64,000 bases of DNA from Candidatus Yanofskybacteria bacterium (GCA_903897805.1 CAIUCV010000017.1:5725-69724); one strand, 5' to 3'. Numbered from the stretch's first letter, positions 3,678-62,894 are shown. Notes: generated by a model from the letters alone, not told the origin. Numbers and translations are program-made.

Positions 3678-4322
3678 ATGATTCCAAATCCATATAGCGG
3701 ACGTTTTATTGCTCTGGAAGGTATTGATGGTTGCGGTAAAAGTAAACAATTTGAACAATTAGTTAGGTGGCTAATACAGCGGAGAGCTACCGTTATTGGC
3801 ACAAAAGAGCCAGATAAAAAGGGTGTGTGGGGTTCGCAAATTTACAAAGATCTGGCCAATCCTAATGGCCTCAATCAAACTGATCCTTTCAGGTTTCAGA
3901 TGTGGTACGCCTGCGACAGCAAATTGAATCTTAGAGAAGTGGTAATCCCGCGGCTTCGCGCCGGATGCAATATTGTCACCGACAGATTCAGGCCGTCAAT
4001 GGTCTATGGCGCCCAAACGGTAAAAGAAATAGCCAAACTTATGCTAATGAGTCAGACGATTCTGGGCGAAGATTTTATCTGGCCGGATGCGACGCTAATT
4101 TTTGATGTTTCCGTGGAAACCGCAATACGAAGATCGAGAGAAAAAAATAGGGATTTGGACGAGCATGAAAGGGCGGAAGTTTTAACGAGGGTGCGCCTAA
4201 ATTATCTCTATTTTTCCAGCGCCTATCCTGGGTGCCATGTTATCAACGGAGAAAGATCGCCGGAGGAAGTTTTTGAAGAGGTTAAATTCGTCATAGCGCC
4301 CGTGCTTAAGCTGAAAATCTAA
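3678..4322 (+). CDS. tmk: Thymidylate (dTMP) kinase
   Basis: P-loop FIALEGIDGCGKS at the N-terminus; ~210 aa. Confidence 0.8.
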   Translation: MIPNPYSGRFIALEGIDGCGKSKQFEQLVRWLIQRRATVIGTKEPDKKGVWGSQIYKDLANPNGLNQTDPFRFQMWYACDSKLNLREVVIPRLRAGCNIVTDRFRPSMVYGAQTVKEIAKLMLMSQTILGEDFIWPDATLIFDVSVETAIRRSREKNRDLDEHERAEVLTRVRLNYLYFSSAYPGCHVINGERSPEEVFEEVKFVIAPVLKLKI

Positions 4323-14675: not shown

Positions 14676-15170
14676 ATGGCTTCAAGGCATCTTTCAAGAA
14701 GTGTGGCTATGCAATCGCTTTACGAGTGGGATTTTAAAGGCAAGAAAAAAGATAAACTGCAAGCAACCATAGAGCACAACGTCGAAGAGTTCGCGCCTGG
14801 CGTAGAAGACCCAAAATTTATCTACGACTTGGTTAATAACGCGATTGAGAAGATAGAAGAAATAGACAAGATTATAGAAAAAGCCGCGCCCCAGTGGCCC
14901 ATTGACCAAATTGCGATGGTGGATAGGGCGGTATTGCGCCTGGGCATATACGAACTGCTTTTTGGGAACCGCGAGGAGGTTCCGCCCAAAGTCGCCATAA
15001 ACGAAGCAATAGAGCTGGCAAAGACATTTGGCGGCGATGCCTCCGGCAAGTTCGTCAACGGGGTTCTCGGTACTATCTACCGGGAAATAGGAGAGCCGGG
15101 CAAAGATGACACGCCCAAAGCCAAGGAGAAAGAACAAGCCGAGGAAACTGAAAAAATAATTAATTTCTAA
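14676..15170 (+). CDS. nusB: Transcription antitermination factor NusB
   Basis: [14 protein letters not shown]-terminus and NusB fold pattern. Confidence 0.85.
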
Positions 15171-15267
15171 TTCCTAATATCTAATTTCTAAATAAGCCCC
15201 GGGTCCCAATTGGGACATTAGACGTTGAGTCATTGTTTAGAAATTAGTAATTAGAAATTGGTCATTA
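15161..15267 (+). repeat. Long imperfect inverted repeat (~32-bp arms, 26/32 matching) built from aatttcta motifs, enclosing a gtccc-aatt-gggac hairpin, directly upstream of rnc
   Basis: Left arm 15161-15192 pairs with right arm 15236-15267; the central small hairpin is at 15204-15218. Confidence 0.6.
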
Positions 15268-20392: not shown

Positions 20393-20420
20393 TTGACTTC
20401 CCCATTTGGAGGAATATAAT
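20393..20420 (+). promoter_or_regulatory. Candidate 16S rRNA promoter (TTGACT, 16-nt spacer, TATAAT)
   Basis: Hexamers read directly, ~260 nt upstream of the 16S 5' end. Confidence 0.5.
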
Positions 20421-20469
20421 CAAGGATATTAAAATGAAGTAAAAACCTTACAACTTTCTGTGTTTTTAC

Positions 20470-20516
20470 ACACTCGGGATTGTCCTTTGACCATAATTCA
20501 GGACAATCCCGAGTGT
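20470..20516 (+). repeat. Perfect 17-bp hairpin in the 16S leader (acactcgggattgtcct / aggacaatcccgagtgt); its loop side carries a boxA-like tgtcctttgacca
   Basis: Read directly; 13-nt loop. Confidence 0.7.
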
Positions 20517-20565
20517 TATTGTCAGGACATTAAAAATTAAATACGAACGATAAGAATACGTGATT

Positions 20566-20583
20566 TCTTATCGTTAACCAGAT
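20566..20583 (+). promoter_or_regulatory. 16S leader half of the rRNA processing stem
   Basis: tcttatcgttaaccagat is the perfect reverse complement of 22358-22375 in the trailer. Confidence 0.7.
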
Positions 20584-20678
20584 CTAAATAGCTTGTGATT
20601 TTTTCACAATCTATTCCTAAGAGAAAATTTTTACCCTTGCCATTTACGGCAAGGAGAGCAAGATTAACTCTTTTTTAT

Positions 20679-22154
<1,476 letters not shown>

Positions 22155-22357
22155 AAATTCAATTCCGCCAACCGGTGGATGAATTTAGAAATAAGTGTCG
22201 TTATAAATTATCAGTTGTTTGCCGGCAGATTGTTGGTAGACGCGCGGTATTAGAGGCCGGTTAATGTGCCTTTGATACTGCGTAAAACTTTTTAATTTAT
22301 GGTCATCCGTTTTGACCGATTCAAACGGCGTTTAAGGCAAGGAGTCGAAAACCTTCC

Positions 22358-22375
22358 ATCTGGTTAACGATAAGA
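22358..22375 (+). promoter_or_regulatory. 16S trailer half of the rRNA processing stem
   Basis: atctggttaacgataaga complements 20566-20583. Confidence 0.7.
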
Positions 22376-22388
22376 GATCATACAATCT

Positions 22389-22413
22389 AAAACCCGCCTC
22401 TCGGCGGGTTTTA
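22389..22413 (+). terminator. Rho-independent terminator ending the 16S transcription unit
   Basis: aaaacccgcc-tctc-ggcgggtttta. Confidence 0.65.
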
Positions 22414-22430
22414 GATTGAGATTAAAAATT

Positions 22431-22697
22431 CTAACCTCTTCTAGCAATTGCTTTTGATAATTGCTCCTTTGCGGTCTCGTGGGCTTTTTCGCTTTCGGTT
22501 AGCTCGTTCTCAAGTTTTCTTATTTCAGCAGAATCTCCATCGCCTTTCTCTTTGTGCGCATCCAGATATTGCTTCAGCGCGTTTTCGGCGTTTGTATGCC
22601 TTTGTTCATATGCACGAAGATTAGCTGCAGACGCTTCTACCCAATCAGCGGCCTCTTTTGACGAAACTTCAGGTTTTGGCATTTCTCCAAATCCCAT
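22431..22697 (-). CDS. Hypothetical small coiled-coil protein (88 aa)
   Basis: ORF only; charged, helical composition. Confidence 0.4.
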   Translation of the reverse strand: MGFGEMPKPEVSSKEAADWVEASAANLRAYEQRHTNAENALKQYLDAHKEKGDGDSAEIRKLENELTESEKAHETAKEQLSKAIARRG

Positions 22698-31563: not shown

Positions 31564-31638
31564 GGGCGTGTAGTTCAATGGTAGAACGTCGATCTGATAA
31601 GTCGAAGGTTCTAGGTCCGATTCCTAGCACGCCCACCA
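31564..31638 (+). tRNA. tRNA-Ile (anticodon GAU), CCA encoded
   Basis: Manual cloverleaf: acceptor GGGCGTG/CACGCCC, D-arm GTTC-AATGGTA-GAAC, anticodon loop CTGATAA, T-arm CTAGG-TCCGATT-CCTAG, then ACCA. Confidence 0.85.
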
Positions 31639-32481: not shown

Positions 32482-32553
32482 GGGCCGGTAGTTCAGCGGT
32501 AGAACGCCGCTTTTGCAAAGCGGAGGTCAGGGGTCCGACTCCCCTCCGGTCCA
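32482..32553 (+). tRNA. tRNA-Ala (anticodon UGC), CCA not encoded
   Basis: Manual fold: acceptor GGGCCGG/CCGGTCC with the G3:U70 alanine identity pair; anticodon loop TTTGCAA; T-arm AGGGG-TCCGACT-CCCCT. Confidence 0.85.
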
Positions 32554-32585
32554 CAAAATTAAAACTGCTCGATTGAGCGGTTTTA

Positions 32586-35805: not shown

Positions 35806-36669
35806 ATGCCAAACTTAATTAGCCGAAAAATCAAAGATGAGTTGAACCAGCTAGGAATTGAACCCAAAAAATCGCTTGGGCAAAATTTTCTCATCAATGA
35901 AGGAATTTATAAAAAAATAGTCGTTGCTTTAGAGATAAAAAATAACGATATAATCGTTGAGGTTGGTCCTGGCTTGGGCACTCTGACCGGGTTTTTAGCC
36001 GAAAGCGGGGCCGAAATCATCGCCATCGAAAAAGACGGATTATTGACTGCCTACCTTAAAAATAAGTTCAAAAACAATAAAAATGTTACAATTATAGAAG
36101 GCGACATTTTAAAATTTAATCCCGTCGACTACCGATTACAAACTACCAATTACAAACTAGTCGGCAATATTCCCTATTACCTCACTTCGCGCTTAACAAG
36201 AACCGTTTTTGAAAAATGGCCTCGCCCCGAAAAAATCGTGCTGATGATCCAAAAAGAGGTCGCCCAGCGCATAATCGCCAAGCCGCCGGATATGAGTTTA
36301 CTTGCCGTTTCAGTTCAATACTATTCAGAACCGAAAATAATTAGTTACGTTTCCAGGAATAGTTTTTACCCGGCTCCAAAAGTTGACTCAGCGATTCTTC
36401 GGCTAGTTTCTAGTTTTCAGTTTCTAGCTTCTAGTAAAAAAACTAAAAACTCGCAACTAGAAACTAGAAGCTTCTTTCGGATTGTTAGGGCGGGCTTTGC
36501 GGGCAAAAGAAAACAACTGATCAACAACTTGGCAATGGGCTTGAAAATTTCAAAACAGGAAATTCAACAAAAGCTATCTCTCGTTGATATCAATCCCCAG
36601 CGTCGTGCTGAAACTCTAACTATTGAGGAATGGCAAAAAATTACAAACTCCTTATTTTCGCGGGACTAA
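35806..36669 (+). CDS. rsmA: 16S rRNA (adenine1518/1519-N6)-dimethyltransferase
   Basis: LGQNFLIN and EVGPGLG.LT SAM motifs. Confidence 0.9.
   Translation: MPNLISRKIKDELNQLGIEPKKSLGQNFLINEGIYKKIVVALEIKNNDIIVEVGPGLGTLTGFLAESGAEIIAIEKDGLLTAYLKNKFKNNKNVTIIEGDILKFNPVDYRLQTTNYKLVGNIPYYLTSRLTRTVFEKWPRPEKIVLMIQKEVAQRIIAKPPDMSLLAVSVQYYSEPKIISYVSRNSFYPAPKVDSAILRLVSSFQFLASSKKTKNSQLETRSFFRIVRAGFAGKRKQLINNLAMGLKISKQEIQQKLSLVDINPQRRAETLTIEEWQKITNSLFSRD
36403..36472. repeat. Nested tttctag / ctagaaa direct and inverted repeats, including a perfect 10-bp inverted repeat agcttctagt ... actagaagct, inside the ksgA CDS
   Basis: Read directly; in-frame and encodes SSFQFLASSKKTKNSQLETRS. Confidence 0.65.
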
Positions 36670-44445: not shown

Positions 44446-44778
44446 ATGCGTTTTCAAGTTCCACAATTTATTGAGACGGAGAGCAAAATCGTCGGGCCGT
44501 TTACGCTCAAACAGTTTTTGTATTTGGCCGCCGGGGCGGTAATAATTTTCATTCTGCAATATGTTCTTAGTTTCACATATTTAATAATCGTTGGTACGCC
44601 AATTGCCGCCCTTGCCGCCGCTTTAGCTTTTTATAAAGTTGACGGCGTCCCGTTCCCACAATACCTATTGATGGCCCTATCGTTTCTAACCGGAACAAAG
44701 AAGTATGTTTTCAGCAAAGACCAAGGACAACAATACTTGCCGGAAAATAAATCCCAAGCATCAAATTCTAAGCCTTAA
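44446..44778 (+). CDS. VirB3/PrgI-like small membrane protein
   Basis: 110 aa; I.GPFTLKQF followed by two TM segments, as in Gram-positive VirB3-like proteins; immediately precedes VirB4. Confidence 0.6.
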   Translation: MRFQVPQFIETESKIVGPFTLKQFLYLAAGAVIIFILQYVLSFTYLIIVGTPIAALAAALAFYKVDGVPFPQYLLMALSFLTGTKKYVFSKDQGQQYLPENKSQASNSKP

Positions 44779-44788
44779 ACAAATTTCA

Positions 44789-45436
44789 ATGGCCAAACTG
44801 ACAAGGGAGCAAAAAGCGGTAAAGACAACTAGGGATTTTGTCCAAATCGCTGAAATTCGCGATACCGTTTTGGCGTTAAAAGACGGCTCGTTGAGATCGG
44901 TTGTTGAAATAGGTTCAATAAATTTTGAGCTGAAATCGGCAGACGAACAGGTTGCAATAGTCCAAGGGTTTCAAAACTTCATTAACTCTCTCGATTTCCC
45001 GCTTCAGATAGTGGTAAACTCACGCAAGTTGGACATTGAACCTTATTTAAAATCCCTTGAGGGGCTGACCGAAAGTTTAAAAAACGAATTGCTGAAAATC
45101 CAAGCCGTTGAATATACCAGATTCATTAAGGGCCTAACTGAATTAACCAACATAATGGCCAAGAAATTTTTTATTGTGGTTCCTTTTTACGCGATAGAGG
45201 CGGTGTCTCCGACCAAAGCCGGCTTTTTTGGCGCGATAAAAAGCGCGGTTATTCCGTCCAAGTTCGTAAAAACACTAACCGAAGAACAATTGGGAAATTA
45301 CAAAGTGCAGATAGGCCAAAGGATAGGAGTGATTGCTGAAGGGCTTAGCGGGCTGGGGCTTCAAACAAAAACTCTGGCGGGAGACGAACTTATGAATTTG
45401 TTTTATTCCTATTATAATCCCGGGGAACACCTATAA
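44789..45436 (+). CDS. VirB4/TraE-family ATPase, N-terminal fragment (split gene)
   Basis: F.QIAEIRD..L.L.DGS...VEIGSINFELKS..EQ matches the N-terminal region of Gram-positive VirB4 homologues. Ends at TAA 45434-45436, 2 nt before the next ORF, which is in another frame. The tracked ORF starts at 44705. Confidence 0.6.
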   Translation: MAKLTREQKAVKTTRDFVQIAEIRDTVLALKDGSLRSVVEIGSINFELKSADEQVAIVQGFQNFINSLDFPLQIVVNSRKLDIEPYLKSLEGLTESLKNELLKIQAVEYTRFIKGLTELTNIMAKKFFIVVPFYAIEAVSPTKAGFFGAIKSAVIPSKFVKTLTEEQLGNYKVQIGQRIGVIAEGLSGLGLQTKTLAGDELMNLFYSYYNPGEHL

Positions 45437-45438
45437 AT

Positions 45439-47220
45439 ATGGCGCTATTCGGCAGAAAACAATCAATCATCCCGACGGATATCCAGCCTAAAACGCTTGA
45501 TGATTTGCTAGCACCTTCGGCAATCAGCATTTCGTCAAACTACCTCCAGATAGGCAGCCAGTTTGCCCGCACGCTTTTTGTCGTAACTTACCCGAGATAT
45601 TTGAACACCAATTGGTTTTCGCCGGTCATAAATATGGACAGACCGATAGACGTTTCCATCTTCGTCCATCCGCAAGATACCGGGAACATTCTAAAACAGC
45701 TGAGGGACCGCCTCGGCAGATTAGAAGCTCAAGCGATGGAAGAGCAGGCAGCAGGCAAGGTAAGAGATCCGATACTGGAAACGGCGATTAATGACATCGA
45801 AATGTTGCGCGACAAGCTTCAACAGGGGACGGACAGGTTTTTTGAGCTGGGATTGTATATAACGATTTACGGTGATTCCACAAAAGAACTTGACGAAACG
45901 GAAAACAAAATAAAAGCGATCCTTGATGCTCAGCTTATTTATTCCAAGCAGGCGACTTTCAGGATGAAAGAGGGATTTTTCTCAACGATGCCCCTGAACG
46001 ATGACCAGCTTGCCGTCCACACTTCTTTAAATACCGAGCCCATTTCCTCGCTCTTCCCGTTTGTTTCTTACGACCTTACGGCTGATAAAGGGATACTTTA
46101 CGGAATAAACACCCACAATAACTCTCTGGTTTTGTTTGACAGATTTGCTTTGGAGAACGGCAATATGGTTGTCTTCGGCAAGGCCGGCGGGGGAAAAAGT
46201 TACGCCGTAAAACTGGAAATTTTAAGAAGCTTGATGTTCAGCACTCAGGTTTTTGTCATTGACCCAGAAAATGAATACAAGTTCCTGTCGGATACCGTGG
46301 GCGGGATTTCAATCAAGATATCTATCGCTTCGGACCAGCATATTAATCCTTTTGACTTGCCTGCGCCTCTGCCCGATGAGAGTCCGGCAGACGTTCTGCG
46401 CTCTCATGTATTGAATTTGCTCGGCTTGTTCAAAATTATGCTTGGCGCTCTCACTCCCGAAGAAGAAGCGATTCTTGATGAAGCCGTAAACCAGACATAT
46501 GCCCTAAAAGACATAACCTCGGCCACAACCGACCTTAAAAGCGCTACGCCGCCCTTAATGAGCGATTTGCAAAGCGTCTTGGAAGGAATGACGGGGACAG
46601 AATCATTAGCCATCAGAATCAAAAAATATACCGAGGGAAGTTTTGCCGGTTTCCTAAACAACCCGACCAATGTTCAGCTGGATAATCAGCTTATAACATT
46701 CAGTATCCGCGATATGGAAGAGGAATTAAGACCGATAGCAATGTATCTGGTCTTGAATTTCATCTGGACCCAGGTTAGGACCGAGCTCAAGAAGCGCATA
46801 TTGGTGGTTGACGAGGCCTGGGTGTTGATGAAGTATGAAGCTGGTGCGGCGTTTTTGTTCAATATGGCCAAACGTTGCCGCAAATACTTCTTGGGTCTTA
46901 CCACGATTTCCCAAGACATTCCCGACTTTATGTCTTCGCCGTACGGAAAGCCGATCGTTACCAACTCGTCGCTGCAGTTGCTTTTAAAGCAATCCACGGC
47001 GTCAATTGAGCTGGTAAAAAGCACCTTTAATCTCACGGACGCTGAAAAGTTCTTCCTCATGGAATCGCGTGTCGGGCATGGTCTGTTCTTCGCTGGCGCT
47101 AATCACGTCGCATTACGGGTCGTTGCCTCTTACGCGGAAGACCAGATAATAACCTCCGACCCCAGACAGATACTTGAGATAGAACAGGCCAAAAAGGAAT
47201 TGGCTCAACAAGCAACTTAA
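45439..47220 (+). CDS. VirB4/TraE-family ATPase, central and C-terminal fragment
   Basis: Walker A GKAGGGKSY, Walker B ILVVDEAW, GLTTISQD motif. Confidence 0.8.
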   Translation: MALFGRKQSIIPTDIQPKTLDDLLAPSAISISSNYLQIGSQFARTLFVVTYPRYLNTNWFSPVINMDRPIDVSIFVHPQDTGNILKQLRDRLGRLEAQAMEEQAAGKVRDPILETAINDIEMLRDKLQQGTDRFFELGLYITIYGDSTKELDETENKIKAILDAQLIYSKQATFRMKEGFFSTMPLNDDQLAVHTSLNTEPISSLFPFVSYDLTADKGILYGINTHNNSLVLFDRFALENGNMVVFGKAGGGKSYAVKLEILRSLMFSTQVFVIDPENEYKFLSDTVGGISIKISIASDQHINPFDLPAPLPDESPADVLRSHVLNLLGLFKIMLGALTPEEEAILDEAVNQTYALKDITSATTDLKSATPPLMSDLQSVLEGMTGTESLAIRIKKYTEGSFAGFLNNPTNVQLDNQLITFSIRDMEEELRPIAMYLVLNFIWTQVRTELKKRILVVDEAWVLMKYEAGAAFLFNMAKRCRKYFLGLTTISQDIPDFMSSPYGKPIVTNSSLQLLLKQSTASIELVKSTFNLTDAEKFFLMESRVGHGLFFAGANHVALRVVASYAEDQIITSDPRQILEIEQAKKELAQQAT

Positions 47221-47223
47221 ACT

Positions 47224-47673
47224 TTGGTTTGGCAAGCAATGGAATCAACCTCTGAACAACAATACCAATACGCTCTTGAAGAAGATCGGGCGCGCCAGCG
47301 CCTAGAAGCGGAGAGCTTGGCACAACAGCAGGGGTCCTCGCAAGACAAAATGGGATGGGGGATTTTCATTGTTGCCCTCATTTTAAGTTTAATAGCCGAC
47401 GCGGTTGAACTTATCACCGCAGGAACTCTTGGTTGGTTTGTGGGCCTGTTTATTGATTTGATATTGCTCGTTATGCTAGGATTTTCCAAGGCGGGAAGAA
47501 AACAGTTTAAAAAATGGATATGGGGACCCTTGATAGAAACAGTGCCGATTCTCTCCGCGGTTCCTCTCTTCCGTGTCGCTTTTCTGATTTGGGCATTTGC
47601 CTCCTCCCGCAGTAAAACACTTCGGGCAGTTTCTAAGGTAGCATCGGCTGGTTTGTCTAAGAAAGCGGTTTGA
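47224..47673 (+). CDS. Small membrane protein (149 aa)
   Basis: Two to three predicted TM segments, directly after VirB4. Confidence 0.45.
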   Translation: MVWQAMESTSEQQYQYALEEDRARQRLEAESLAQQQGSSQDKMGWGIFIVALILSLIADAVELITAGTLGWFVGLFIDLILLVMLGFSKAGRKQFKKWIWGPLIETVPILSAVPLFRVAFLIWAFASSRSKTLRAVSKVASAGLSKKAV

Positions 47674-47686
47674 TTCTTCGGCTCGT

Positions 47687-48778
47687 ATGGCTAAAAAAAT
47701 CACAATCTTTTTCGTATTCATCCTCGCCGCCTTGGCTATGTTTTTAGCCGGTTATTTAATCAGCAAAAAGTCGCTGACCGGCGGGCAAAACCAGCAAGCG
47801 TTAATAAATAATTCGCTAGTGTCCCGTTTTGAAGAATCGCCAGAGAAGCATGTTTCGCCAATTGGACTTTTCGCCCTTTCGCAAGACCGTGCCACCTTCC
47901 CCACGCTTTCGGCAGACGGAAAGGAAATTTTCTATTATAATCCCGACAGCGGAGAGATAAGGTCAGTGTCAACCCAAAATATGGCCGGCGGCTCAACACT
48001 GGCGGCAAAAATCCAGCCAGGTGCTCGCCAAATAAGCTGGGCTTCAAATAAAACTTTGGTTGCCACTTACTCCAACAACAGTATTTTTTACGACCTTAAC
48101 TCCAACTCTTCCAAAAAACTGGATAGCAAAATAAAAAATCCCGTCCTTTCAAGGGCGGGTGATAAGCTTGCTTACAACTACTTTGATACGGAAACGGGGG
48201 AGGGTAGCATAAGCATTGCCGACCCCACGGCAGAAATTTTCAAAACTCTCCTGTCCACCAGATTTGAAAACTGGCAAATTAGTTGGCTAAACAGCGATGT
48301 CCTATTTCTTGTCACGCGCCCCGCTTTAGGGAACTCTGTGTTTTCTCTTTTTACTCTGGACACTACAACCAAGGCTCTGCACGGCGTTCTTGATTCGAAA
48401 AACAACCTTGAAGTCGTTTGGTCGCCCAGCGGTCAGAAAATAGTTTATTCATATAGCATCGGCCCGGCCCAAGAAAGCGGTCTTTACTTTATGGATTTAG
48501 CTAATCGGGAGGAAGTAGGGCTGAATGCTACCCTCAACGCTTCCAAATGCACATGGAGCATTGATGATAAGACGATTTACTGCGCAGGGAAGGATTCGTT
48601 TGTTGTTCTGGACACTTCTTTGGCTAGTCCAATCCCTGAAAACATCCCGAACGTTCCGAAAGAAAACCTGGACAGCTCCGCCACCGCCACCAATTTATTA
48701 CTGACGAGCGCGGAAGATTACCTTGTCTTCAGAAATTCACAAAACGGAAAACTGTACGGTTTAAACTTAAACCGATAA
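47687..48778 (+). CDS. Membrane-anchored TolB-like beta-propeller protein
   Basis: Signal anchor, then repeated DG..I.Y / SP.G.K..Y propeller-blade motifs. Confidence 0.55.
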   Translation: MAKKITIFFVFILAALAMFLAGYLISKKSLTGGQNQQALINNSLVSRFEESPEKHVSPIGLFALSQDRATFPTLSADGKEIFYYNPDSGEIRSVSTQNMAGGSTLAAKIQPGARQISWASNKTLVATYSNNSIFYDLNSNSSKKLDSKIKNPVLSRAGDKLAYNYFDTETGEGSISIADPTAEIFKTLLSTRFENWQISWLNSDVLFLVTRPALGNSVFSLFTLDTTTKALHGVLDSKNNLEVVWSPSGQKIVYSYSIGPAQESGLYFMDLANREEVGLNATLNASKCTWSIDDKTIYCAGKDSFVVLDTSLASPIPENIPNVPKENLDSSATATNLLLTSAEDYLVFRNSQNGKLYGLNLNR

Positions 48779-48807
48779 TCAACTCCGGTAATATTTGCAA
48801 AATAAAA

Positions 48808-48840
48808 AAAGCCGGCCTCGCGGCTGGCTCTCCATTTTGA
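48808..48840 (+). terminator. Putative terminator after the T4SS-like cluster
   Basis: A-run, gccggcctcgcggctggc hairpin, T-run. Confidence 0.4.
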
Positions 48841-48942
48841 TTTCAGCTCAAACGGAGACAAAAACTGCTTACCCGTACTTTTACGCCCAAGGATTTTGGG
48901 GCAACCTCCGTGAGGAGGCAGTGATGTGAGCTGACCCCACGG

Positions 48943-49341
48943 CTACTTTGCCAAAAAGATGGTGGCGGTGACCAAAAGGTACGCCATGCCGATTAGGGCG
49001 GGGCCCACAAGCCCGTGAGTCCCCAGCTTTATGCAGCGTTCGGGGGGATCCTCATCCCTTCCCAGAAACAGCACAAGCAGGGCCGCCACAGCCGCCGCCG
49101 GGAAATCCCAGACAGCGAAAGCGTGTTGGAAACGGAGGTAACTCTCCACCGACTGGTAAATCGGTGGCAGTACTGCAACCCCCGCTACAAAAACGCTGCC
49201 AAACAACACCCAAAGGCTGGTTCGTACCAGCCCCCGGCCACCCAGTGGCCCTTCCGCCACCACGGGCATGACGAAGGCCAACATCACGACAAAACCCACC
49301 AGCTCAAACAAAATCAAACCAATTACAGAGATAGCCGGCAT
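48943..49341 (-). CDS. Hypothetical membrane protein (132 aa)
   Basis: Four predicted TM segments. Confidence 0.45.
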   Translation of the reverse strand: MPAISVIGLILFELVGFVVMLAFVMPVVAEGPLGGRGLVRTSLWVLFGSVFVAGVAVLPPIYQSVESYLRFQHAFAVWDFPAAAVAALLVLFLGRDEDPPERCIKLGTHGLVGPALIGMAYLLVTATIFLAK

Positions 49342-49806
49342 GGCTAGCTCCTTTCTCCCGCAATTATGGCTTGCGAGTAGCCGATTTGATGTAAAAGTGC
49401 GTATTTACTGGCCTACTTCAGGTTTCTTAGTATACCTTAATTATAGCAAAATATGGCTCTCTTGTCAAGCCCAAAATGGGGTCGCTTTGAATATCGCAGA
49501 AAAACATAAGTTTTAAGCCCTATTCCGGCCCAAAAACGATATAAGCTCTCTGATTTTTGTTATCCAGATAGCATAGAAAGTAGGGCCTGAGCGAGTCCCT
49601 ATCTAAGAAATTATTGATGATGACTTTGGTAACAAATAAGCGAGCGAGTAGCGGGAAACCTGCTCCCGCAGACCCTTTAGCCCCGCCTTTGGCGGGGTCA
49701 GCTCCATCAGGAGCTGAGGTTGAGGGAAAGGCAGGAGGGTTCCTGCGTTACTAGCGACGCTATATTTGTCAAAGTCGGAATACTGATTTCGTGATAGGGG
49801 GTCGCG
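49342..49806. ncRNA. Unassigned ~460-nt non-coding region with tandem GC-rich hairpins; candidate structured RNA
   Basis: No ORF on either strand. Hairpins gcggga/tcccgc, ccccgcc/ggcgggg, tcagctc/gagctga and gcagga/tcctgc at 49650-49750. Confidence 0.3.
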
Positions 49807-51246
49807 CTAGCTTTCAACGCTCTCCGGCAAGGCCGGCTCTTTTTTTAGAGAAATAATCTCCCGCAGATCCTCTCTAGTAAAACCCCCTAACAGGAAAAGA
49901 ATTGGGAAATAAGAAACGGCGGCCATAGTAGCCCAAATAAAATTACCGAGAAACGGCCACATAATGACCAGCATAACAACTGTGGCAATGGCTGCTTTGA
50001 ATATTACGGTCTTGTCCGCCACGGTCCCCGCTTCTTTTTTTATCAGCCGGAACATCCACAATGTGATGAGAATCTCCGTTGCTACTGTAATCCAGGCGGC
50101 GGCGAAATATGAATAGCGGGGTATTAGGATCAGATTCGCCGCCACATTAAAAACTGCGCCTGCCAAATAAATCCACATGCCCTTTTTCTGAAGATTGAGG
50201 GCGACGATGGCGTTACCCCCCAGATTGCCAAAAAATATCATTAAAATCGCGACGCTCAATATTTTCAACACCGGACCGGATTGGACAAAGCCGCTGCCGC
50301 CGATAATCCTTATGATCTTGTCGGATAAAACAAAAATGTAGACCATGAGCGGCAAGGCAAATACCGATAATACATTGAAGGCCTTGCGGAAGGTTCTTAC
50401 AAATTCCGCCTGATTGCCAAACGCATACTTGGACAACAAGGGCATGACAAGACCGACATAAATTGCCGGGAGAAAAATGGCCGCCTCAAGAATTTTGTAA
50501 GCAACGGAGTAAATGCCTACGTCATAAGCCGGCTTCATTAAAGATAACAAAACCGTATCCAGTTTGAAATAAATCAAAACAAAAACAAGGGAAACCGCTA
50601 TAGGAAAGGCTGTTTTTAAAATCTGTTTCCAATAAACAAAGTCGGCGGAAAGTTTTATTTTTACCAATGAGCGGGAAAATGCGAGAGTCAAAAGAAAATG
50701 GATTGCTTCAGATAAGACGACTGCCCAGACAAAAGACAGTAAGCCTGCCTTGATATAAATCATAACCGCCAACAGTACGAGCTGGCACGCTCTGGCGATA
50801 ATATCGGCTACAGAGACAAGGTAAAGGCGCAGGTATTTCTGAAACACTCCCATTAAAACCTGCGTTAATGAAGAAAACACGGAAAAGAGGGAGGCGATAA
50901 CAACACCCCACCTTACCAGCGGCGGGTAGGGAAAAAATAAAACCAGAAAATCCGCCAGAACTAGAATTAAGACCACAAAAATCAGGCGGAGGGTAAAAAT
51001 TTTACTGGCAATCGGTTTCTCTTTATCAGTATCAACTTTAGAAACTTCCCTGACCAGAACCGTATAAAGGCCTAAGTCGGCAATAGAGGTAAAAATGTAA
51101 AGATAGGCAAAGATAAGATTGTAATATCCGTAGCCGGCCGGCCCCAGAGAGCGCGTCAAAAGACCGACTACAACAAGACTGATAGCCCCGATTACAAGGC
51201 GGGAGAGAGCGGCAATGCCCAGATTGTAGGAAATCTTTTGGAACAA
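49807..51246 (-). CDS. Polysaccharide/lipid-linked oligosaccharide flippase family protein (Wzx/MurJ-like)
   Basis: ~14 TM helices; N-terminal pattern typical of MOP-superfamily flippases. Confidence 0.6.
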   Translation of the reverse strand: MFQKISYNLGIAALSRLVIGAISLVVVGLLTRSLGPAGYGYYNLIFAYLYIFTSIADLGLYTVLVREVSKVDTDKEKPIASKIFTLRLIFVVLILVLADFLVLFFPYPPLVRWGVVIASLFSVFSSLTQVLMGVFQKYLRLYLVSVADIIARACQLVLLAVMIYIKAGLLSFVWAVVLSEAIHFLLTLAFSRSLVKIKLSADFVYWKQILKTAFPIAVSLVFVLIYFKLDTVLLSLMKPAYDVGIYSVAYKILEAAIFLPAIYVGLVMPLLSKYAFGNQAEFVRTFRKAFNVLSVFALPLMVYIFVLSDKIIRIIGGSGFVQSGPVLKILSVAILMIFFGNLGGNAIVALNLQKKGMWIYLAGAVFNVAANLILIPRYSYFAAAWITVATEILITLWMFRLIKKEAGTVADKTVIFKAAIATVVMLVIMWPFLGNFIWATMAAVSYFPILFLLGGFTREDLREIISLKKEPALPESVES

Positions 51247-62845: not shown

Positions 62846-62894
62846 CCATCGCAAAAAACCGTCCCGCCTAGGCGGGACGGTTTTTTGATTCCTT

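Follow-up and report, generated by a model that had tools for sequence, protein, structure and literature searches.

A putative foldback element and a promoter module in a non-coding gap beside a flippase gene of Candidatus Yanofskybacteria

The gap, the insertion and its modules

The window analysed is a stretch of 64,000 nt from a Candidatus Yanofskybacteria bacterium (GCA_903897805.1 CAIUCV010000017.1:5725-69724). The gap at 49342-49806 (465 nt) is flanked by two minus-strand ORFs, one of 132 aa (48943-49341) and one of 479 aa (49807-51246), the latter being a Polysacc_synt/MatE flippase whose homologues carry names of Paceibacterota or Yanofskybacteria. The locus adjoins oriC: the minus strand carries rnpA, yidD, yidC, jag and the flippase gene, the plus strand dnaA and dnaN. 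The gap sequence was identical across independent JGI, ENA and Logan assemblies, and due to this agreement an assembly artefact is excluded. The only strain-level variation found at the locus was in one JGI sample (L007, positions 1-342), which showed 6 mismatches in 342 nt over the promoter, the leader and the 5' part of the cargo; every other copy was 100% identical.

The first-pass annotation had described the gap as one ORF-free unit with a GC-rich stretch and four strong hairpins in its right half. Only short ORFs of 34-82 aa overlap the gap, none of them credible, and homologous rods, with tips of other lengths and sequences, do not preserve those that lie within the rod described below. 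The GC content of 49650-49750 is 0.62 compared to 0.41 for the remaining gap and 0.45 for the whole window, and the four hairpins are indeed present at -8 to -16 kcal/mol each. The description as a single unit did not hold, as the left ~130 nt are the promoter and leader of the downstream ORF. On balance, the gap is considered to be composite and to lie in a strain-variable insertion of ~1 kb, the right part being a foldback repeat element (the rod) and the left part a promoter module with a leader. The features are as follows.

About 48779-49806: insertion of ~1 kb between the flippase gene and the convergent T4SS-like operon
48810-48829: bidirectional terminator, after the 3' module
48826-48931, minus strand: conserved non-coding module 3' of the cargo, also behind six different cargo genes in relatives
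48943-49341, minus strand: cargo, an orphan ORF of 132 aa, predicted multi-pass membrane protein
49342-49433, minus strand: 5' leader ahead of the 132-aa ORF, structurally unremarkable (z = -0.6)
49348-49353, minus strand: Shine-Dalgarno AAGGAG, 6 nt ahead of the ATG of the 132-aa ORF
49468-49440, minus strand: predicted sigma-70 promoter (TTGACA, 17 nt, TATAAT, extended -10 TG)
49500-49520, minus strand: conserved box GGGCTTAAAAC-TTAT-GTTTTT, in the alignment a degenerate copy of the 14-bp palindrome AAAACCTAGGTTTT
49589-49807, minus strand: foldback rod of family palA, an imperfect palindrome of ~219 nt with 75 pairs in the 219-nt domain
49596-49629, minus strand: 3' basal arm of the rod (CCAAAGTCATCATCAATAATTTCTTAGATAGGGA), remnants of which recur in L022, L031 and L061
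49632-49637, minus strand: island ATTTGT of the 3' arm, which pairs with GACAAAT; this helix is invariant in alignment A4
49764-49770, minus strand: island GACAAAT of the 5' arm, pairing with ATTTGT(T) at 49632-49637
49651-49746, no strand: GC-rich apical part of the rod with all four hairpins
49651-49670: hairpin 1, -11.0 kcal/mol
49680-49698: hairpin 2, -15.6 kcal/mol
49698-49717: hairpin 3, -13.2 kcal/mol
49731-49746: hairpin 4, -8.2 kcal/mol
49824-49846, plus strand: terminator-like hairpin and T-run (T7), inside the flippase tail codons KKEPALPE

The locus was compared with a set of 61 loci gathered through flippase homologues. In insert-free relatives (L011-L013, L015-L017, L030, L037, L041-L046) the distance from the flippase stop to a convergent gene of ~360 aa is less than ~150 nt and usually 5-60 nt. 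Since the flippase gene directly adjoins the convergent operon in most relatives, it is the window that carries an insertion. The ~360-aa gene is the last gene of a PrgI/VirB4-like T4SS operon. The plus-strand genes at 44446-48778 encode a PrgI-like protein, a VirB4/TraG-type ATPase and uncharacterised membrane and beta-propeller-like proteins, and form a Gram-positive-type T4SS-like cluster adjoining oriC. The strain L021, whose flippase DNA is 97.6% identical to that of the window, has an unrelated rod (family palE) where the window has palA, and the homology ends at window position 49841.

The terminator-like hairpin at 49824-49846 has an equivalent with a U-run in the insert-free loci L011, L014, L015, L030, L038 and L040. 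Because it is kept in distant relatives without the insert, it is regarded as the ancestral terminator of the convergent operon. Within the conserved tail KKxPxLPEE, the P-x-L-P codons supply the hairpin and the KK codons the U-run. The conserved C-terminal codons of the flippase gene seem to serve as the terminator of the convergent operon as well.

The cargo ORF gave no Pfam match, and no homologue except itself was found among 5.8 billion proteins. Its GC and GC3 values are 0.58 and 0.67, compared to 0.44 and 0.51 for the flippase gene; its composition is foreign (0.58 against 0.45). The cargo ORFs of close relatives encode 77, 94, 142, 153, 197 and 214 aa and show no mutual similarity among those compared, the slot holding a different orphan gene in each examined related genome with cargo. 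The module 3' of the cargo is ~120 nt long in the relatives, about 76-91% conserved and has three small hairpins; candidate roles for it are a 3'-UTR element, an sRNA and a recombination flank.

The predicted promoter matches the consensus at 12 of 12 positions. The module GCTTGACW-17-TGYTATAATTAAAG, preceded by the box GGGCTTAAAACCTAGGTTTTT, is kept before unrelated cargo genes in L025, L027, L032, L053 and L061, and the homology of the leader with other cassettes stops after AAACCTGAAG (49416-49425). The box at 49500-49520 was flagged as terminator-like by the scan and is probably an operator or a weak terminator. The perfect 14-bp palindrome AAAACCTAGGTTTT lies 15-35 nt upstream of the cassette -35 box in L032, L022, L028, L031 and L053 and is a candidate operator for a regulator.

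Fold, pairing and families of the rod

The first base of the rod is the last one of the flippase stop codon, and its outer pairing can be extended to 49576-49815, giving ~75-85 bp in total. The minimum free energy of 49540-49850 (311 nt, containing the rod) was -132.1 kcal/mol for the plus strand and -117.5 kcal/mol for the minus strand, with z values of -6.0 and -6.7 respectively, and 0 of 100 shuffles folded as well. A GC-corrected sliding-window fold scan revealed the rod as the most structured place in the 64 kb outside the flanks of the 16S rRNA gene. Hairpins 1 and 4 are inverted copies, mutually complementary and paired within the rod, and hairpins 2 and 3 form its variable, bifurcated tip. 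For 49645-49752, the rod conformation (-56.6 kcal/mol) has a moderate advantage only over the four separate hairpins (~-48 kcal/mol). In all 8 rods examined, the strand antisense to the flippase folds better by 4-20 kcal/mol. By eye, the palF-like minus-strand sequence AAAAATCAGAGAGCTT at 49543-49558 resembles L032 and the L053 rod (3' arm) and may perhaps be a faint trace of an older rod's 3' arm.

Elsewhere in the window, the most structured regions are the 16S flanks at 20400-20680 and 22040-22480. The 16S rRNA gene (20673-22152) has no 23S gene nearby, and tRNA-Ile and tRNA-Ala (31564-31638 and 32482-32554) are found 9-10 kb downstream of it with a 244-aa ORF between them. AT-rich imperfect palindromes of short repeated words (TAATTTCTAAT... 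and CTAGTTTCTAG...) are located at 15155-15267 and 36403-36472.

A trivial explanation would be that intrinsic terminators of the usual kind happen to lie close together in the gap and that the long-range pairing is fortuitous. The tip hairpins resemble terminator stems of this genome, such as those at 62852-62887 and 22383-22418, and the scan found 10 terminator-like sites compared to 2.6 in shuffles. However, a U-run is missing after each of the four hairpins on both strands, the long-range pairing of ~80 bp has a z of about -6, and the pairing is kept with compensatory changes in other lineages. This explanation is contradicted by the covariation and homology results and has very little probability.

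The first-pass annotation had found no match by eye to the cores of tmRNA, RNase P RNA, SRP RNA or 6S RNA, and had allowed for a degenerate variant of one of them. The Rfam scan of both strands was in accordance with the former statement, as no model reached E = 0.1 on the gap or on seven related loci with gathering or permissive thresholds. In the permissive scan of 751 nt the best match was an unrelated Yersinia sRNA (E = 0.37), with no 6S, SRP, RNase P or tmRNA match at E <= 10; 12 related loci gave no Rfam match, and ARAGORN reported no tmRNA. A highly divergent housekeeping RNA would fit a rod fold that loosely recalls 6S RNA or 4.5S RNA, the presence of rnpA 3 kb away, and the fact that none of 6S, SRP, RNase P and tmRNA was found in the 64-kb window. 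Against it stand the missing Rfam and ARAGORN matches, the lack of a large central bubble in the predicted rod fold and the loss of the rod in most relatives, including its replacement in the 97.6%-identical strain. Since such an RNA would not tolerate this replacement, the reading is rejected; it is essentially refuted and its probability is close to nil. A false lead is thereby removed: the tmRNA, RNase P, SRP or 6S gene of this candidate-phyla-radiation bacterium is not to be sought in the gap.

The architecture was compared over six rods of four families (palA, palC, palE and palF). These rods are 180-226 nt long with 66-81 bp, start 0-6 nt past the stop codon and have the base helix GC..CCCC/GGGG..GC in common. 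The distance of the motif [GT][AG]CAAAT to the 5' end is 34-39 nt, and that of ATTTGY to the 3' end is 41-48 nt. The basal modules were aligned with the two arms joined by an artificial GAAA loop (alignment A4), and 87.9% of the cells pair; for shuffles the figure is 74%, and shifting the partner by 1-3 columns lowers it to 44-55%. A covariation analysis had been proposed by the first-pass annotation; in A4, 13 of the 29 pairs show compensatory changes, and the score of 0.437 (0.196 in shuffles) was reached by 0 of 500 shuffles. The base helix and the ACAAAT/ATTTGT helix are without any variation. Compensatory pairs amount to 12 of 64 for palB (four copies) and 3 of 67 for palA alone, the latter being few because the arms are so conserved. 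In view of the compensatory changes and of pairing above that of shuffles, the rod pairing is read as actively maintained. It may be kept by selection on the hairpin, either as RNA or as single-stranded DNA, or by arm-to-arm correction, and any choice between these has to be inferred.

Two other metagenomic lineages, L032 (77% over 223 nt) and L033/L034 (72%), have a homologue of the palA rod behind the flippase stop codon. Most relatives have no rod, and conservation in relatives, which had also been named as a check, was hence found in part only. The palA arms are 85-88% identical in L032/L033 compared to 71-72% for the neighbouring flippase DNA, and the rod tips of L032 and L033 are unrelated GC-rich hairpins instead. 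The palB, palC, palE and palF rods at the flippase 3' site are non-homologous to palA and are distributed as follows.

palB: same flippase 3' site in L022, L027, L028 and L054
palC: same flippase 3' site in L010 and L031
palE: same flippase 3' site in L021 and L059-L061
palF: same flippase 3' site in L053

The palE rods are 92% identical, and the flippase proteins of their hosts are 77-98% identical to that of the window. The palA rod occurs as a single copy per genome fragment and always at the same locus; in the 64-kb window no second rod copy, tip hairpin copy or related module was found. In L027, palB is present twice, on either side of the cargo (87.8% over 238 nt), and in L055 half a palB copy is fused to the flippase tail. 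The family palD, with foldbacks of ~150 bp, was found before an RRM-protein gene in L021 (4970-5130) and between rnpA and yidD in L031 (631-773), and the flippase flank of L031 (about 4120-4155) holds a palD mini-copy, a mini-palindrome of 30 bp. The occurrence of palD at unrelated loci in two relatives implies that such elements disperse in this lineage.

Several genomes carry, downstream of the current rod, a 3'-arm-only remnant of another rod. BLAST of the palA 3' basal arm against such a remnant gave 91% over 34 nt, and local alignment of the 3' arm to L022, L031 and L061 gave scores of 56, 52 and 33 with a null maximum of ~30. It was also considered whether 140 nt had been inserted into the loop of a small ancestral hairpin, still present in L022, to give the rod; with the 5'-arm similarity within the null and only the 3'-arm homology significant, this is not claimed. 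The newest rod always adjoins the flippase stop codon.

For a target-site duplication, no clean empty site was found for palA, and the junctions of the second palB copy showed no clear direct repeat when compared with L025. No Y1/HUH transposase was present among the ten small ORFs tested, and no RAYT gene was found in the 64-kb window. An exact-pattern scan of IMG/VR for the conserved 3' arm and a blastn search of phage and plasmid collections with the whole 1-kb insert gave no match.

Public assemblies end at or inside rods in L001, L002, L004, L008, L009, L010, L033, L034, L059 and L060. The fragmentation of metagenome assemblies at this hotspot is attributed to long inverted repeats and/or strain heterogeneity, and the practical consequence is that such palindromes break metagenome assemblies.

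Interpretation of the rod

The first-pass annotation had also suggested a lineage-specific structured RNA. The rod is lineage-specific, strongly structured and non-coding and has compensatory pairing; an RNA gene is not the preferred reading. Under that reading the rod would work in cis within the 3' UTR or be an sRNA, antisense or derived from the 3' UTR; a protein would bind its long helix with the two invariant boxes, and the rods would be orthologous or paralogous RNA genes and not selfish DNA. The strong fold fits well, as do the invariant helices and covarying stems over four families, which exceed both controls. Rod arms more conserved than the adjacent coding DNA, the consistent strand asymmetry in 8 of 8 rods and the plus-strand terminator-like hairpin with T7 after the rod (49824-49846) point the same way. 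However, no plus-strand promoter occurs within 49342-49575, and the terminator is explained by the convergent operon, being present in rod-free relatives. Most relatives lack the rod, and the closest strains have rods of other, non-homologous families in its place. Tandem rods and decayed half-copies suggest a turnover of elements, members of sister families are found in duplicate or at other loci, and Rfam gives no match. No promoter and terminator pair defining an independent RNA gene was found in the gap. A plus-strand sRNA ending at 49824-49846 was rejected as the main reading on the same grounds, namely an ancestral terminator and no plus-strand promoter. Overall, a structured RNA is considered unlikely, while still deserving some weight.

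The cargo genes bring in another alternative, in which the rods would be attC-like folded recombination sites, that is, hairpin substrates of a site-specific recombinase exchanging promoter-bearing cargo cassettes at the junction of flippase and T4SS operon. Unrelated orphan cargo genes do lie between conserved flanks at one chromosomal site, the rods have conserved ends and variable centres with structure conserved above sequence, and in L027 the cargo is bracketed by two palB copies. Rod and cargo are uncoupled, however, since L010 has a rod without cargo and L025 a cargo without rod. The cassettes bring their own promoter, unlike integron cassettes, the islands miss the R'/R'' consensus of attC (GTTRRRY/RYYYAAC), no recombinase gene lies beside any locus, and the conserved flanks permit simple homologous replacement. 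This alternative is regarded as highly improbable.

The best reading of the rod, held to be somewhat more likely than not, is that of a foldback element of ~220 bp, belonging to a lineage-specific superfamily nearest in kind to REPINs and foldback MITEs. Features of the REPIN or MITE type are present, namely alternative rod and clover folds, location at a gene end, duplication and dispersal of sister families and decayed half-copies. The element would be built on two invariant helices, the base and ACAAAT/ATTTGT (~36 nt inside either end), separated by covarying stems, and would have a GC-rich tip that may be freely exchanged. The palA tip could itself be REPIN-like, with inverted small palindromes (hairpins 1 and 4) around two tip hairpins. 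Transposition and/or recombination between incoming DNA and the conserved flanks would bring in or swap such elements at the 3' end of the flippase gene, and older copies would decay downstream. A hotspot with recombination between conserved flanks would explain both the patchy distribution and a rod identity exceeding that of the flippase.

As the rod starts at the stop codon with no terminator before it, it should be included in the flippase transcript, and it would then form the 3' end of the rnpA-yidD-yidC-jag-flippase transcript. By analogy, a hairpin of ~80 bp could act there as a 3' barrier that stabilises the mRNA against exonucleases, serves as an RNase III target or impedes read-through into the cargo. 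A stabilising, processing or insulating role would be the most likely one on this analogy, and the pairing may be kept by this barrier effect or by the need for a single-strand hairpin in mobilisation. In the left part, the palindromic box, the consensus -35/-10 and the leader with its Shine-Dalgarno would drive the orphan 132-aa membrane ORF.

Some points count against a mobile element. The palA rod was found in one copy per genome fragment and at one locus, no target-site duplication could be defined, and the ten small ORFs tested yielded no transposase. Homologous recombination of a resident structured element could give the patchiness and the high identity, and the covarying stems and invariant helices also resemble a functional RNA. 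The stronger predicted folding antisense to the flippase would not be expected from the 3'-UTR model.

A more far-reaching proposal is that the rods are a new class of protein-recognised hairpins directing cassette exchange, making the site an integron- or REPIN-like gene-capture hotspot in ultra-small symbiotic bacteria. Two invariant helical boxes, kept at fixed spacing by covarying stems, would then be active as single-stranded DNA or RNA, and promoter-bearing orphan cassettes would be acquired or swapped between the origin-proximal flippase operon and the T4SS-like operon. This proposal is speculative and is judged decidedly unlikely.

Three further candidates were tried. Tn3-type ends were rejected, as the GGGG/CCCC ends have the wrong polarity. 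An Frpo-like single-strand promoter was rejected, TTGACA being present in palA only and without a -10. An oriT was set aside, since there is no relaxase and the rods occur in one subclade only.

A full-text literature search found no foldback or REPIN-like repeats, MITEs or structured intergenic RNAs described for Patescibacteria. If the foldback element family is real, the reduced and supposedly repeat-poor genomes of Patescibacteria would keep foldback repeats with an actively maintained hairpin, and these would be clustered at a hotspot of gene turnover, close to oriC and next to a T4SS-like operon. Such a hotspot, with conserved modules around ever-different orphan genes, may be a route for sampling accessory genes.

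Comparison with known systems

The rod differs from an intrinsic terminator in that no U-run follows it or any of its four hairpins, and the canonical terminators of this genome look different. It resembles 6S RNA and 4.5S SRP RNA in being a long irregular helix of 5' and 3' halves, but it has no covariance-model match, no central bubble, no domain IV motifs and no conservation in close relatives.

Like attC sites, the rods are imperfect palindromes whose ends are conserved and whose centre varies; structure is kept more than sequence, and exchangeable orphan genes at one site accompany them. They are longer than attC sites (57-141 nt). Their islands GACAAAT/ATTTGTY and GC..CCCC/GGGG..GC miss RYYYAAC ... 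GTTRRRY, and GTTACC and GTTGCC do not fit it. The rods are not found one per cassette, the cassettes have their own promoter, and no integrase is present in the neighbouring gene lists.

ERIC/IRU, Correia/NEMIS and RUP are foldback MITEs or intergenic repeats; transcribed along with their neighbours, they form hairpins in the RNA. Foldback MITEs are 100-250 bp long and non-coding, with arms complementary over most of their length. They lie in transcribed intergenic space near or overlapping stop codons, include variants with internal insertions and can change the stability or processing of flanking mRNAs. The rod is similar in being 219 nt long, non-coding and complementary from base to tip, and in its position at a stop codon. 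It differs in that neither target-site duplication nor multi-copy dispersal was shown for palA, and in that several mutually non-homologous rod families, with two short invariant helices in common, are stacked at one site. The rod pairing is kept by covariation between families, whereas classical TIR-only MITEs need none.

REPINs are REP doublets that form hairpins and are mobilised by RAYT/TnpA-REP transposases (PMC3116915). Their ends are conserved, their spacer is constrained in length and hairpin capacity with compensatory changes, and rod and clover folds are alternatives (PMC3116915). The rods, at 180-226 nt, are ~2-3 times longer than REPINs (about 70-110 nt). The palA rod is found once per genome fragment at one locus, in contrast to tens to hundreds of REPIN copies; no REP tag of the GTAG/CGTC type was recognised in the rods, no RAYT gene was found in the 64-kb window, and the host is a Patescibacterium with a reduced genome. 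In common with REPINs, the rod is a symmetrical, non-coding palindrome with highly conserved blocks near its ends, an intervening sequence constrained mainly in length and pairing, and compensatory changes. It also competes with a four-hairpin fold and is extragenic, lying beside gene ends. Because its features match those described for REPINs and foldback MITEs, the rod is best read as a long, low-copy variant of this kind.
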